From: Candidatus Bathyarchaeia archaeon
GTDB lineage: Archaea > Thermoproteota > Bathyarchaeia > Bathyarchaeales > Bathycorpusculaceae
Assembly: GCA_038882975.1 (NCBI GenBank)
Contig: JAVZNE010000004.1
Coordinates: 1 to 64,000 of the forward strand
DNA length: 64,000 nt
Direction: 5' to 3'
The position numbers and the translations under genes are program-made. How positions within the stretch are numbered: position 1 is the first letter of the stretch; every line of letters starts with the position of its first letter. Below, in pieces: positions 48,655 through 54,875 of this stretch. The notes beneath the pieces are model-generated. The model was not told where the DNA came from and made no database searches. It saw only the letters and a list, made by a program, of their open reading frames with translations.

Positions 48655-49689
48655 ATGTCTATTAGAAAAGCTTTGAGCATTGTTTCGCGGGTCTTGGCTC
48701 CAGATAAGCCCTATCATGTTCAATGGATGATTACGAGGAAATGCAATTATCGCTGTAGGGGATGCAACGTTTGGCGAGAGCAAGACAGCAAAGAATTGAC
48801 AACCGAAGAGATCAAACGCGGGCTGGATATTCTTCGAAAACTTGGCGTTGTGGAAGTTTTGATATCAGGCGGCAACCCGCTTTTAAGGGCAGACATCGAC
48901 GAAATAATTGAGTATGCATCACGCTATTTCTTTGTAACAGTCTATGATAACGGCAGCTTTGCAGCCAAAAAAATCGACGCTTTACGCCGTGCAAACTTTG
49001 TTGCAATTTCAATAGACAGCCTAAACCCAGAAAGAAATGATTACATAAGGGGCGTCAAAGGAGCATGGGAAAAAGCCATGGAGACTGTTGAAAAACTTCA
49101 CATGGAAGGAATTAACGTAAGCGTAACGCCAACGATTTCGCAAGCCAACCTTTACGAGATTGTCGATTTCACCAAATATTTCTTGGACAGAGGAATACCT
49201 GTCTGGTATTCTTTATACTCTTATGACTCGCCAAACCATTCAAACTCGCTTTTTAAAATAGGTAAAGCGGAAGACGCCTTCTTAATAAGGGATAAAGAAG
49301 CCATGGTTAAGGTTTGCGACGCACTTCTCGAAATGAAACAAAAGAACGACAATGTTTTAATTACAACAAAGGTTTTGGAAGCTGTTAAACACCTTTATTT
49401 AAACAACAAGAGAATTTGGAAGTGCCGCGCACTGCAGAATTTCTTTGTTATAAATCACCGAGGCGAAGTCGCCGGCTGCCACCTTCACGAACCAGTTGCC
49501 TCAATTTTTGAGCTGCCAAACCTTTGGGAAAGTGAAAGATTTGAAGCCTTTAGGAAGAAGTACAGAGATTGCGAAAGATGTGCATATCTTTGTTACATTT
49601 TTTACTCGATTCACGGAAGTGTTGCTGGCAACATTGAAATAGTTAAGGATAAGTGGCGCAGTGTAAGATTCTTCTTAAAGAGACGCTAA
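48655..49689 (+). CDS. Radical SAM protein with C-terminal SPASM/twitch-like cysteines
   Basis: CNYRCRGC, SGGNP, ISIDS; WKC...GC...CERCAYLC. Confidence 0.9.
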   Translation: MSIRKALSIVSRVLAPDKPYHVQWMITRKCNYRCRGCNVWREQDSKELTTEEIKRGLDILRKLGVVEVLISGGNPLLRADIDEIIEYASRYFFVTVYDNGSFAAKKIDALRRANFVAISIDSLNPERNDYIRGVKGAWEKAMETVEKLHMEGINVSVTPTISQANLYEIVDFTKYFLDRGIPVWYSLYSYDSPNHSNSLFKIGKAEDAFLIRDKEAMVKVCDALLEMKQKNDNVLITTKVLEAVKHLYLNNKRIWKCRALQNFFVINHRGEVAGCHLHEPVASIFELPNLWESERFEAFRKKYRDCERCAYLCYIFYSIHGSVAGNIEIVKDKWRSVRFFLKRR

Positions 49690-50712: not shown

Positions 50713-51738
50713 TTATTGCTTCCCCCTTTTTCTTGCCAATGCCAACCATAAATGATCGCATTCTGGGCGCGGAAGACTTGTTAGGCGATTATCTCTGTGA
50801 ACCATTAGACGCTTTCTCGGGTTGCTTAAAAACTCGCCAATAACAGAAGCCTCAATCTTCTCCATTTTCAATTTCTCAATGACAAGTTCTGTGCATTCCG
50901 GCTTTGCCGCAATAAGCATAGCTCCAGAACTTATCAGCTGTAACGGATCTATTACCAGAAGTCTGCAGATTTCCGCCGTTTCTTCCGCCACCGGAACTTC
51001 TTCTTCAAAAACTTTAACGCCGAGGTTTGAGGCATCTGCCATTTCATGGATGCCTCCGAGGACACCGCCTTCCGTTGGGTCGTGCATTGCTTCTACTCCA
51101 CCTGTTTTAAAGGCTGTAATACCATCTTTAACAACGCTTATTCTCTCAAAAAACTTCTGTGCAGACTTTAACAGCTTATCATCGGCACCCATATTTAGAA
51201 GCAGATTATAACGTTCAGTTGCAAGTATGGCTGTTCCTTCTATGCCAGCACTCTTTGTTAAAATGAGTTTGTCTCCCGGCTTGGCTCCACCAGCTGTGAC
51301 GTAACACCCCTTATCTGTTATTCCTAGGGCGCATCCTATAACAACTGGATTGGCAAGTCCAGGCGTTACCTCGCAGTGCCCACCAGTAATTGCCATTTTC
51401 AAATCTTTTGCAGCGGCATCCATCTGAGAACAGATAACCTCTATGATTTTTCGATCAGCATTTTCTGGAAGGAGTATGCATGAAAGGAAAAACGCTGGTT
51501 CCACACCGAAAGTGGCAACATCATTCGCATTGATGTTCACCGCAAGCCAGCCAATACGCTCAACAGCTCCAGTAATGGGATCCATCGAAGCTACTAGGGA
51601 TCTCTTGCCCAAATCTATGACTGCGCCGTCAAAACCAACTGAAGGCCCGAGGACAACTTCCGTCCGTTTAAATCCCAAATTTTTAAAGACAACCTCTGTA
51701 AGTATTTCGACAGGGATCTTTCCCATGGGCAACTTCAT
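50713..51738 (-). CDS. AIR-synthase-family (PurM/HypE/ThiL superfamily) protein
   Basis: DPITG, NANDVA, GGHCE, MHDPTEGG; no HypE C-terminal PRxC. Confidence 0.85.
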   Translation of the reverse strand: MKLPMGKIPVEILTEVVFKNLGFKRTEVVLGPSVGFDGAVIDLGKRSLVASMDPITGAVERIGWLAVNINANDVATFGVEPAFFLSCILLPENADRKIIEVICSQMDAAAKDLKMAITGGHCEVTPGLANPVVIGCALGITDKGCYVTAGGAKPGDKLILTKSAGIEGTAILATERYNLLLNMGADDKLLKSAQKFFERISVVKDGITAFKTGGVEAMHDPTEGGVLGGIHEMADASNLGVKVFEEEVPVAEETAEICRLLVIDPLQLISSGAMLIAAKPECTELVIEKLKMEKIEASVIGEFLSNPRKRLMVHRDNRLTSLPRPECDHLWLALARKRGKQ

Positions 51739-51761
51739 TTTTAGCCCTTTTCAAAGTTCCT

Positions 51762-52481
51762 TTAGATTTTAAATATCCTTTGTGCATTTTGCTCTAAGAC
51801 CATATCAAGCTGCTTTTTTGTTAAACCAGCAACTTCAACTTTTTTAATTTCAAAGGCAGGGTGGCCGAAAGGCATATCAGACCCGTAAATAACTCTGTTC
51901 TCACCGATTTTTAAAACAGCCTCCTTTATTTTGCTATGCATAGGCATCGCAGATGTTTCTAGTATTATGTTTTCATGTTTTTGTGCAACTTCTATGGCTC
52001 CGTTAATGTAAACTATATGCCCGTGGCCCATGTGGCCCAAAATAATTGAGACATCTGGGTACACGTCAGCTAAGTTTCCGAAGTGCCACGGCAAAGACCA
52101 TGGTGGATGACCGCAATGAAAAAGAACTGGCACCTTATATTTACGAGCTTGATCCATTATAGGGTAAATGATGTCTTGATCCGGCAAGTACGCGTTAAGT
52201 AAGGGGTGCATCTTTATTCCTCTGAAACCCCATTTGTTAATTGCTTTGTCTACTAGTTTCACAGCATCTTCGCCGTCGTGGGGGTTGACCCAGACAAGGC
52301 CCACAAGTTTCTCTGGATATAACTTAATTGCGTTTTGGGTCAATTGATTTGGTAAGGAAAAGACTATACACTTTTTTATGTTGCATTCATCCATAATACG
52401 CAGCATTCCTTCAACGTCTAATTCAACGTTGAAAACGGGAAATTTGCCAAGATGAGTGTGGGAGTCTATAACCATCATCAA
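51762..52481 (-). CDS. Amidohydrolase_2 family metallohydrolase
   Basis: DSHTH, GIKMH, FHCG, GHMG, YGSD. Confidence 0.88.
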   Translation of the reverse strand: MMMVIDSHTHLGKFPVFNVELDVEGMLRIMDECNIKKCIVFSLPNQLTQNAIKLYPEKLVGLVWVNPHDGEDAVKLVDKAINKWGFRGIKMHPLLNAYLPDQDIIYPIMDQARKYKVPVLFHCGHPPWSLPWHFGNLADVYPDVSIILGHMGHGHIVYINGAIEVAQKHENIILETSAMPMHSKIKEAVLKIGENRVIYGSDMPFGHPAFEIKKVEVAGLTKKQLDMVLEQNAQRIFKI

Positions 52482-52516
52482 TCCTCCACATTTAACTCGG
52501 TTTTAGGCCACTAATT

Positions 52517-53056
52517 TTATAGCAAGTATTCTATTTTTAGTGATCGCCTTAATATTAACAAAATCGGCACCGTCACGATAATGTCTATAGCGCTTAGAGG
52601 GAAAAATGTGATTAAGTCTAAATACGCTACAGGACCAAACAAAAAGAAATCATAAAGAAAATAACCTACGTTTTTCTCGATTGCGGCGAAAACCATTGCT
52701 AGAAGTTCGGAACGTCTCGGTTGTGTTGGAAATAAGCGCCTTAAACTGCCCAGCAGAAAACCCATGAAACCGCGAATAACTATTGTTGCCGGAGCCCACT
52801 GTATAAAACTACTACCCCACAGGGGATTCCAAACATCAAAGAGCATGGCACCAACACCACATGCGAATAATCCTACAAGAGGCCCACAGAGAATGGCCGC
52901 TATAAAAGATGCGATGTCTCCCAGATGCCAAACCCCTAAAGGTTTTGGCATAGGAACAGATATGGCTGTCATGGCGTAAACAAGTGCTGTCATGACACCC
53001 ATAGTTGCTATACCTTTTGAAGGTGACACGTTTACACGGAATACTCTCGCGTTCAC
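52517..53056 (-). CDS. ECF transporter S component
   Basis: TALVYAMT, WHLGD, GVGAMLFD, WAPATIVIRG; 5-6 TM. Confidence 0.82.
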   Translation of the reverse strand: MNARVFRVNVSPSKGIATMGVMTALVYAMTAISVPMPKPLGVWHLGDIASFIAAILCGPLVGLFACGVGAMLFDVWNPLWGSSFIQWAPATIVIRGFMGFLLGSLRRLFPTQPRRSELLAMVFAAIEKNVGYFLYDFFLFGPVAYLDLITFFPLSAIDIIVTVPILLILRRSLKIEYLL

Positions 53057-53084
53057 GTTTTATCCCACATGCGTTGGGAAATTT

Positions 53085-53112
53085 AGTTAAGATATAACTT
53101 TACTATATAAAG
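53085..53112. promoter_or_regulatory. Two overlapping palindromes at the TATA box upstream of the ECF S gene
   Basis: AGTTA-N5-TAACT (53085-53099) and CTTTA-N5-TAAAG (53098-53112); TTTATATA on the minus strand. Confidence 0.4.
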
Positions 53113-53149
53113 ATTTAGCTTAACCAAAAAATGAAAGTTATGAAGATTA

Positions 53150-54553
53150 TTACAACAGAAGTTTTAAGTCATCCAGTGCAGTCAAAACTTTTCTCCCACG
53201 CCTCGTTATTTTGTAGTGTTTCCTACCGTTTTTTATGCAGCTTACCACCAATCCTCTTCGGGACAGTTCATTTAGGTGTTGGTATATGGCGGCTCTTGTC
53301 ATTGTTTTTCCGAGTTTTTTCCATAAATCGTAGCCATAGGTGTCCCTTTCACTTAAGATCCTAAGTATTTTCGCTTTTGTACTTACTTCCAATCCAATAA
53401 CTGCTGTTTTCTTTTTCTTTGTTAAAGCTTGAAGGATGTCTGTTGCTTTTAGACCGCTTCCAGTTATTAAGCATACAACCTTGTCTTTTTTGTCGATAAC
53501 CCGCTCGTTCATAAGTTTCTTGAACGCCGCATACGTTGCTGCGCTTGCTGGTTCGGCGAAGATGCCTTCATGTTTTGCGATTTCTTGTTCTGCTGAGAAG
53601 ATTTCTTCATCTGAAACCGCTATGGCGGTTCCTTTAGATTCTTTGATGGCTTTAAGGGCCAGTTTGCCATACCATGGTTTTTTAACGAGGATGGCGAGCG
53701 CGTGAGTCGAAGGTTTTGTTTTGAGGGCTGGCTCTTGAATGTTTTGCAGGTATGCGTTTACAATTGGTGAGCATCCTTCTGCTTGAACGCCGACCATCCT
53801 TGGAATGGATTTTATTTCGCCTCTTATTTCAAGCTCTTTATAGCCTTTCCAGACGGCATATAGTGTTCCGCCGCTTCCCATGGAGGCTATAAACCAGTCT
53901 GGAACGCCTATTTGCTCGTAAACTTCGTAAGCTATGGTTTTTAGGGCTTCCATAGATAGCGGGTTAAATTCGGCGGATCCTTGATACCAGCCCATTTCTT
54001 TGGCTAGTTTGTCTGCCCTTTTCAGCGAGTCGTCTACTATTTCCCCATATTCCTCGATTACAGCGTCGTAGATGAGCATTTGGGCAAGTTTTCCCATATC
54101 CACGTTTTTCGGCACTACAACATGGCATGTTAATCCAGACTTTGCACAGTATGCAGCCAAAGAAGCCCCAAGATTTCCATTTGTGGCACAGACAACTGAC
54201 CCATACCCTAAATCTACGGCGTTGGAAATAATTAAGGCTGCACACCTATCCCTAAAGGAATTTGTTGGGTTTCGCGTCTCATCCTTAAAATGTAGATTGC
54301 TTAGCCCAACGTTTTTGGCAAGCCTTCTCGCCTTAATGAGTGGGGTTCCCCCCTCTCCCATGGAAATAACATTTCTAACTTTTGGCAGAAGTTTCTTGTA
54401 ACGCCAAAAAGTGAAGGCGCCGACAAATCTCGCTTTTTTGAGCGTTTCATCATCGCACTTGCACTCTAGTGGACTGCCACATTCCTTACAAATATGCTGT
54501 GGAGGATAAACCTCAAATTTTGCACCGCAAACCGTACACACCAGATAAAACAT
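53150..54553 (-). CDS. Threonine-synthase-like fold (PLP Lys replaced by Arg) fused to PadR-type wHTH
   Basis: N-terminal Zn ribbon, GEGGTPL, NPTNSFRDR, EPASAA, TGSGLK, then ILRILSERDTYGYDL...IYQHLNELSRRGLV...YKITRRG. Confidence 0.88.
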   Translation of the reverse strand: MFYLVCTVCGAKFEVYPPQHICKECGSPLECKCDDETLKKARFVGAFTFWRYKKLLPKVRNVISMGEGGTPLIKARRLAKNVGLSNLHFKDETRNPTNSFRDRCAALIISNAVDLGYGSVVCATNGNLGASLAAYCAKSGLTCHVVVPKNVDMGKLAQMLIYDAVIEEYGEIVDDSLKRADKLAKEMGWYQGSAEFNPLSMEALKTIAYEVYEQIGVPDWFIASMGSGGTLYAVWKGYKELEIRGEIKSIPRMVGVQAEGCSPIVNAYLQNIQEPALKTKPSTHALAILVKKPWYGKLALKAIKESKGTAIAVSDEEIFSAEQEIAKHEGIFAEPASAATYAAFKKLMNERVIDKKDKVVCLITGSGLKATDILQALTKKKKTAVIGLEVSTKAKILRILSERDTYGYDLWKKLGKTMTRAAIYQHLNELSRRGLVVSCIKNGRKHYKITRRGRKVLTALDDLKLLL

Positions 54554-54626
54554 TATGCAACCTCGTCTCATTTTTCTAACAGTTAGATTTAGCGATCATG
54601 TCTATGAGGCTTTCTAAATTTTAGAT

Positions 54627-54875
54627 TTAGGGCTCTAAACCTGGAAGGATGGCAATTATTTCTGCAACTCGCCTCACAATTGCCCAGTCAAATTTAACAT
54701 CGCTTTCTATATTAACTAATAGACCAATTACGTGCTCTTCATTTTCCAATTTTCTTGGACCCGCATCCTTTGGCTTTTTCAGCTCCATAATTGCTGGCAA
54801 AAGCATAATGATGATGAAGGTTATAACTCCAAAAAACAAAATTACAGCCGACGTTAAAGCCGAATTCTGTACCAT
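54627..54875 (-). CDS. Small membrane protein
   Basis: One TM helix, ELKKPKDAGPR; RBS AGGTAGAG. Confidence 0.65.
   Translation of the reverse strand: MVQNSALTSAVILFFGVITFIIIMLLPAIMELKKPKDAGPRKLENEEHVIGLLVNIESDVKFDWAIVRRVAEIIAILPGLEP

Follow-up and report, generated by a model that had tools for sequence, protein, structure and literature searches.

PdxR, a MocR member of the GntR regulators, is a one-component regulator that uses the fold of a pyridoxal 5'-phosphate (PLP) enzyme as its sensor, with an N-terminal GntR winged helix joined to a fold-type I aminotransferase-like domain in which the Schiff-base lysine is kept. Among Archaea, ThiR (a ThiN-like domain with a helix-turn-helix, HTH), reportedly described by Rodionov and co-workers in 2017, is an enzyme-derived vitamin regulator of another fold and for another vitamin. 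RbkR (riboflavin kinase with HTH), also with another fold and vitamin and still an enzyme, is an archaeal one-component regulator of vitamin genes with an enzyme-domain sensor and, in the cited part of PMC8305020, the precedent for such regulators. PdxR regulons hold pdxST, pdxK and the transporter gene pdxU, and MocR regulators are reported to be absent from Archaea, in the passages of PMC5320631 cited here. As stated in the relevant part of Denise et al. 2023 (PMC9997740), only three prokaryotic vitamin B6 transporters are characterised and the regulator analysis was not extended; B6 transport and regulation are acknowledged gaps. We found no description in the literature of a fusion of threonine synthase (ThrC) with a winged helix, of an archaeal B6 regulator or of B6 auxotrophy in Bathyarchaeia. 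Here we analysed a 64,000-nucleotide stretch (the window; positions 1 to 64,000 of contig JAVZNE010000004.1, assembly GCA_038882975.1) of a Bathyarchaeia genome, and the nearest homologues of the regulator described below carry the same class name. The minus-strand gene at 53150-54553 probably encodes a B6-responsive one-component repressor, built of a dead ThrC-fold sensor and a PadR winged helix, rather than a threonine synthase. The fused family to which it belongs offers a candidate sensor and a candidate importer of B6.

The regulator is like PdxR in the use of a PLP-enzyme fold as sensor, and its predicted targets (pdxS-pdxT and a PF07155 gene) are like those of PdxR (pdxST and pdxU) in function, not in family membership. 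Unlike PdxR, it has a fold-type II ThrC-like sensor, a C-terminal PadR winged helix and, in most members of its family, no lysine. The Pfam domains of the regulator are PALP and PadR only, with no N-terminal GntR winged helix or fold-type I domain. The likeness to PdxR is a convergence because neither domain belongs to the MocR family. With ThrC the regulator shares the fold and the N-terminal zinc ribbon; it differs from ThrC in the lack of the Schiff-base lysine, the DNA-binding domain, the B6-gene neighbours and the lack of thrB in the genome.

The database copy of the regulator (467 aa) starts at Met7 of the open reading frame (ORF), position 54553, and an in-frame upstream ATG at 54571 gives an ORF of 473 aa (53150-54571). 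The product carries a four-Cys zinc ribbon (54479-54538; C6, C9, C22 and C25 in 467-aa numbering), common to archaeal-type ThrC, followed by the fold-type II PLP-enzyme domain (53459-54367; Pfam PALP, 259 bits, residues 69-371 of the 473-aa ORF). A flexible linker (53387-53434; residues 374-389 of the 467-aa form, pLDDT below 50) leads to the PadR-type winged helix-turn-helix and a C-terminal helix (53180-53368). In the AlphaFold2 model (mean pLDDT 92.6, pTM 0.80) the disordered linker is followed by a winged helix of three helices, a beta hairpin and the C-terminal helix; PF03551 matches residues 402-464 with 46 bits, above the cut-off of 27. The best Foldseek matches of the model are threonine synthases (target-normalised TM 0.83-0.87), and the solved ThrC 2zsj is 39% identical in the fold alignment. 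Dimerisation is expected from both parent families of the regulator.

The 2zsj alignment places NPTNSFRDR of the regulator opposite NPTGSFKDR, and the AGG codon at 54251-54253 puts Arg in place of the Schiff-base Lys. A preliminary description of this DNA, made from the sequence alone, had noticed this replacement, the fused PadR-like domain and the co-oriented downstream genes for an S component of an energy-coupling factor (ECF) transporter, an amidohydrolase and an AIR-synthase-like protein. The structure alignment, the Pfam searches and the model bear out all of these features. Its caveat was that AAG to AGG is a single-base change; a contig of run X1 matches 54143-54454 with zero differences, the loss is family-wide, and no variant at 54251-54253 is among the listed differences between the window and the read contigs. 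Arg is kept in the homologues, as the same description had asked: among the 120 nearest, 116 have R, two S, one M and none K, with one outside the motif pattern.

We compared 150 representatives at 50% identity: 81 have a C-terminal extension with 50 or more residues aligned to the winged helix, and 69 have none. The Lys is missing in 73 of the 81 with the winged-helix extension versus two of the 69 without it (67 of these 69 have K), so lysine loss tracks the winged-helix fusion. The 81 extended representatives have L (20), R (16), I (14), V (6), K (6), T (5), M (4) and F (3) at this position, one each of S, Y, A, N and H, and two gaps. Four of the six K-bearing extended representatives are proteins of 610-633 aa whose extension is only putatively a winged helix. 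In the 56 fused loci used below for neighbourhood comparison the position is R in 36, K in six and I, L or M in 12, and two proteins are cut at the N-terminus. The loss of the lysine is a family trait, not an error. Conservation among 59 plain ThrCs reaches at least 85% at approximately 55 columns, and 75 fused proteins keep the commonest residue in every one of them except the Lys column; the kept pocket columns include the PLP-phosphate loop glycines, Asn127 and Thr364. We detected a single fused-specific conserved column in the enzyme domain, which is not Lys, and thus no compensating fused-specific lysine. Because the conserved ThrC columns are all kept except Lys, the PLP pocket appears to be under selection and catalysis does not.

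In a FastTree phylogeny of 157 sequences, a single clade with support 94 takes in all 58 plain ThrCs that bear Lys. Two clades hold the fused proteins: one has mostly R, with a Bathyarchaeia (n=3) and an Asgard (n=3) subclade of Lys forms nested in it, and the other has L, I, V, M or T. The fewest changes on this unrooted tree are two for fused versus plain and three for Lys versus non-Lys, in a history that takes in two apparent reversions to Lys within the clade. The Lys-bearing fused proteins L076, L077 and L081-L085 (one Bathyarchaeia subclade; Promethearchaeia/Hermodarchaeota) are nested in the Arg clade, which is consistent with a one-base change back to Lys or with a loss that happened more than once.

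A further line of evidence is the transporter partner. A PF07155 membrane gene adjoins the fused gene in 44 of the 56 loci. It is downstream and co-oriented in 30 loci, the Asgard Lys clade has it in convergent orientation, and in the Thorarchaeota clade it lies upstream and divergent; examples from all three clades match PF07155 with 97-113 bits. Loci with this pair occur in Bathyarchaeia, Asgard lineages, Desulfurococcales and Nitrososphaerota. The partner in the window, a gene for an ECF S component of 179 aa (52517-53056, minus strand), is a short, divergent, HmpT/PdxU2-like variant that scores 72 bits against PF07155 (cut-off 26.7). PF07155 includes PdxU and PdxU2/HmpT according to the cited part of PMC9997740, and the preferred substrate of HmpT is pyridoxamine in that of PMC4860826. 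The sole PDB sequence match of the window S component is HmpT/PdxU2 of Lactobacillus brevis (4hzu chain S; E 1.5e-5, a low similarity of 28 bits), and 4hzu_S is also the sole PDB sequence match of a Thorarchaeota partner (E 4.8e-12). No RibU structure was matched by the S component sequences, even at E up to 10. Glu41 and His84 of HmpT align with Asp47 and Arg95 of the window protein, which keeps the charge type. The other S components in the genome behave differently: for one the match is CbrT (6fnp, E 0.002), and for another no structure was matched. The window S component is a predicted B6-vitamer uptake protein.

A spacer of 27 bp separates the predicted operator TAGTAAAGTTATATCTTAACTA (53084-53105, minus strand) from the GTG of the transporter gene. 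The operator has four mismatches to a 22-bp palindrome, TAGTATAGTT-AT-AACTATACTA (consensus TAGTATAGTTATAACTATACTA), which we detected, allowing up to four mismatches, ahead of the transporter gene in 30 of 33 loci, 1-31 bp before the called start in all loci but one (82 bp). An A/T-rich, TATA-like stretch precedes the palindrome, and the 14-nt contexts in the relatives are A/T-rich as well; in the window the putative TATA-box-like element is TTTATATA (53104-53111, minus strand), which overlaps the left arm of the operator. A position weight matrix (PWM) scan of the 1.42-Mb genome ranked the window operator first with 27.1 bits; the next site had 16.7 bits, and three shuffled genomes reached 12.5-19.3 bits. 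That next site, C1:15635, was rejected: it lies inside a small ORF and within the shuffled-genome range. A repeated 8-mer near the regulator gene, CTAAATCT, was also rejected, with four occurrences in the window versus 3.05 expected. The Asgard Lys clade has tandem TATAAGTTnAAACTTATA sites, and the second fused clade has CCTATATATAGG, usually with ATATATAA beside it.

The same operators were found at the PLP synthase genes; PdxS/PdxT is the only archaeal route of PLP synthesis reported in the cited part of PMC9997740. We scanned five R-clade genomes with pdxS. Each has only 2-4 sites with at most three mismatches, and in four of the five one such site lies approximately 100 bp upstream of the pdxS domain match. 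An operator directly precedes pdxS-pdxT in all five genomes (PWM scores 26.1, 22.3, 29.4, 22.3 and 17.5 bits). In four of them the distance to the called start is 3-8 bp, and in G202 the site falls within the ORF as called, at its 5' end. Additional three-mismatch sites in four relatives had no consistent gene context. In the second clade, the regulator gene divergently adjoins pdxS-pdxT in four genomes, with CCTATATATAGG (or CCATATATGG) in the short spacer, and in a fifth genome the motif closely precedes pdxS. Because the palindrome of each clade occurs at both the transporter gene and pdxS, the two clades, with two operators, appear to have converged on the same two predicted targets, PLP synthase and a PdxU-like transporter.

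A conserved membrane protein of approximately 200 aa (MSGY/MSEY...KSVVAAYV) is encoded near pdxS-pdxT in three pdxS-bearing relatives (L166 249-878, L167 1583-2182, L169 2917-3276). In G018 a 150-aa lumazine-synthase-like ORF lies between the membrane protein and the operator.

The preliminary description had proposed a one-component transcription factor that senses a B6 vitamer or a phosphorylated amino acid and controls a salvage pathway that includes uptake. The operator in the window, the pdxS-pdxT operators in relatives and the HmpT/PdxU2 likeness support a one-component regulator, its tie to B6 and its control of the adjacent S component; a phosphorylated amino acid is less likely as the signal. 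We suggest that the ThrC-fold domain without Lys would hold a B6 vitamer, likeliest PLP, non-covalently and with no turnover. The PadR winged helix would bind the 22-bp palindrome that extends over the TATA-like box to the gene start, and the ligand-bound regulator would repress the operon of S component, amidohydrolase and AIR-synthase-like genes. In relatives that still make PLP, the regulator would also control pdxS-pdxT through the same operator. The computation shows the lysine loss throughout the family, the conserved pairing of regulator and transporter genes, and a conserved operator in a conserved position; we infer the ligand identity, repression as the sign of control and the corepressor logic. 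Ligand-promoted repression is the likeliest mode, since the operator reaches from the TATA-like box to the start of the gene, and with ample B6 both uptake and synthesis should be shut down.

The assignment to B6 is based on the predicted operators, the HmpT likeness and the PLP fold, and several observations weigh against it. The HmpT pocket residues are only alike, not identical, in the window S component (Asp47/Arg95 for Glu41/His84). The window operator is among the 30 sites that trained the PWM by which it ranks first. The weakest pdxS-pdxT site, with 17.5 bits, is within the range of the shuffled-genome maxima, and the five genomes with pdxS operators are relatives (four of one family). 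The phyletic link is not B6-specific. A profile of the C-terminal 140 residues matches over almost all of its length in 93 of the 301 genomes sampled from the phylum; TAA codons flagged inside such matches are the stop codons of the genes themselves and do not mark split genes. PdxS is present in 16 of these 93 carriers versus 129 of the 208 non-carriers (and in one of 24 carriers from other phyla), in counts uncorrected for shared ancestry and with genome lists transcribed by hand. RibH is present in seven of the 93 carriers versus 101 of the 208 non-carriers. Because RibH is missing at least as often as pdxS, the carriers appear to be general vitamin auxotrophs. This absence of RibH (86 of 93 carriers, and the genome of the window) together with the naming of PF07155 after RibU could point to the uptake of another vitamin, such as riboflavin, as what the regulator controls. 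We consider this very improbable, as HmpT is the only structure matched, the sensor is a PLP-enzyme fold and the operators precede pdxS-pdxT. That adjacency and palindrome are accidents inherited by related genomes, with no regulatory meaning, gains something from the many loci of one class, whose counts are not independent; the recurrence of the gene pair across four archaeal groups in three orientations, and of different clade palindromes each at both transporter and pdxS, leaves it hardly credible.

Other points against the assignment concern threonine. A true thrC lies two genes away, divergent, in five Bathyarchaeia loci, with a sixth, shorter ThrC-like ORF downstream in L094, and the fused proteins keep the ThrC-conserved pocket residues, both of which would fit an amino acid or a PLP adduct as effector. 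PLP could be a fixed cofactor, the signal being an amino acid trapped as external aldimine with no Lys to release it; the candidates are threonine, homoserine, O-phosphohomoserine and pyridoxamine phosphate. This is unlikely, though the best of the alternatives: the genome has no thrB above cut-off and no second thrC, so O-phosphohomoserine should not be made, no operator was seen in the intergenic region between thrC and the regulator gene in L034, and the genes that bear operators are B6 genes. Scarcely plausible is a regulator that is still an enzyme, a threonine synthase or a Lys-free lyase with an autoregulatory DNA-binding tail. The TIGR00260 score of 209 bits against a cut-off of 167, the conserved remainder of the pocket and the status as the only ThrC-like gene in the genome speak for an enzyme. 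The varied position (R, L, I, V, M, T, F, S and others) is incompatible with one catalytic role, no fused-specific Lys compensates for the loss, thrB is missing and relatives carry a separate high-scoring ThrC. The B6-responsive repressor is the reading we prefer. Its extended form has, in our view, an even chance of being right: a hitherto undescribed, archaea-wide transcription factor family in which a fold-type II PLP enzyme became a dead sensor of free PLP, independently of PdxR/MocR and with a regulon converged on pdxST and a PdxU-type transporter, which would give Archaea their first B6 regulator and their first candidate B6 transporter, with the AIR-synthase-like protein as a new ATP-dependent B6-salvage enzyme.

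The genome of the window (G000) comprises 1.42 Mb and is 94.7% complete. The separate Lys-type thrC that the preliminary description had expected was not found there: in this 94.7% complete genome there is no second TIGR00260 match, no thrB above cut-off (best TIGR00191 match 43.5 bits versus 168) and no match to pdxS, pdxJ or ribH. Both forms do occur together in relatives, nine of the 40 sampled carrying a ThrC of 360-390 bits and a fused form of approximately 200-230 bits. The genome has at least five aminotransferases over 200 bits and four PF07155-like S components. An energising EcfA-EcfA'-EcfT module is free-standing at C1:345861-348357, with a CbiQ/EcfT family match of 118.8 bits for EcfT and two adjoining ABC ATPase genes. 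Aminotransferases and an Ecf module in a genome with neither pdxS nor pdxJ speak for the B6 reading. The gene content suggests a broad auxotrophy for vitamins and threonine. At C9:14043-16223 of G000, genes for a GHMP-kinase-like protein and a small nucleotidyltransferase-like protein with the motif GGTFDxLHxGH come after a second S component, and together they could be a salvage cluster for coenzyme A or flavin.

The records in which fused forms occur bear the names Bathyarchaeia, Jordarchaeia, Promethearchaeia, Hermodarchaeota and Thorarchaeota, and also Nitrososphaerota, Methanomethylicota, Thermococci and Desulfurococcales; bacterial matches among 80 loci have the enzyme part only. Public records name the regulator protein 'threonine synthase'. 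The NCBIfam model NF004170 (PRK05638, 'threonine synthase') covers the fused protein including the winged helix (positions 3-441 of 442; 409 bits for the regulator versus a cut-off of 421) and appears to describe the fused family under the enzyme name. The present analysis corrects this annotation, as fused proteins pass the cut-off of the thrC model and carry the name of the enzyme. Metabolic reconstructions of Bathyarchaeia and Asgard archaea may wrongly credit these organisms with threonine synthesis; in the genome of the window the regulator is the only 'thrC'. The family would also be a clean example from nature of how the loss of one residue can make a sensor out of an enzyme. A third ThrC-like class (130-150 bits to TIGR00260, open frames of 370-415 aa) is present in 17 of 40 relatives, for example at G011:C2:186706-187653 and G021:C1:1191676-1192620, and absent from the genome of the window.

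The regulator, S component, amidohydrolase and AIR-synthase-like genes are co-oriented on the minus strand. The uptake-hydrolyse-phosphorylate pathway proposed in the preliminary description found no support in that form, and the conservation of the neighbourhood stood for the PF07155 gene and, within Bathyarchaeia, for the AIR-synthase-like gene, not for the amidohydrolase. The Amidohydro_2 gene (51762-52481; 239 aa), inserted into the operon, is absent from all 20 related loci checked; across 40 related genomes the closest match shares 35% identity and is encoded elsewhere. It appears to be specific to the lineage of the window. The window S component is only approximately 30-40% identical to every other partner, and because the flanking genes stay 80-86% identical to those of genus mates, the segment with S component and amidohydrolase is a replaced cassette. 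Contigs of runs X3 and X4, approximately 91% identical, are colinear with the window across the cassette, which is therefore real. In a further X4 contig 967 other letters replace it, presumably those of the 250-aa form of the S component seen in genus mates, and the cassette (51743-53271) is polymorphic in hot-spring metagenomes.

The AIR-synthase-like gene (50713-51738; 341 aa; AIRS/AIRS_C, the AIR-synthase/PurM superfamily) is the third operon member in Bathyarchaeia. It follows the transporter gene in 21 of the 56 loci, all from this class, on the same strand in 19 of the 21; in loci other than that of the window the gaps are -34 to 105 bp. The protein was rejected as HypE (114 bits versus a cut-off of 252) and as ThiL (84 bits versus 184); the real ThiL is encoded elsewhere in the genome (265 bits). 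The near-C-terminal Cys of the HypE type varies, with C, S, L, F and Y among 22 orthologues, and the protein atlas label is 'AIR synthase family', with nothing finer.

In the region upstream of the regulator gene (54554-54626) no operator-like palindrome was seen in the window or in genus mates. A conserved stretch, AATTTAGAAAGCCTCATA, lies there approximately 55-60 bp upstream of the gene, also in L035, L045, L046 and L053, and is probably the promoter of the regulator itself. Directly upstream, an 82-aa ORF with one hydrophobic helix (54627-54875, minus strand; no Pfam match) recurs in several related loci with 45-79% identity. Glycosyltransferase and epimerase genes adjoin the operon, and among them is a gene for a radical SAM protein with a SPASM domain (48655-49689, plus strand), which is kept nearby in nine loci with varying position and strand.

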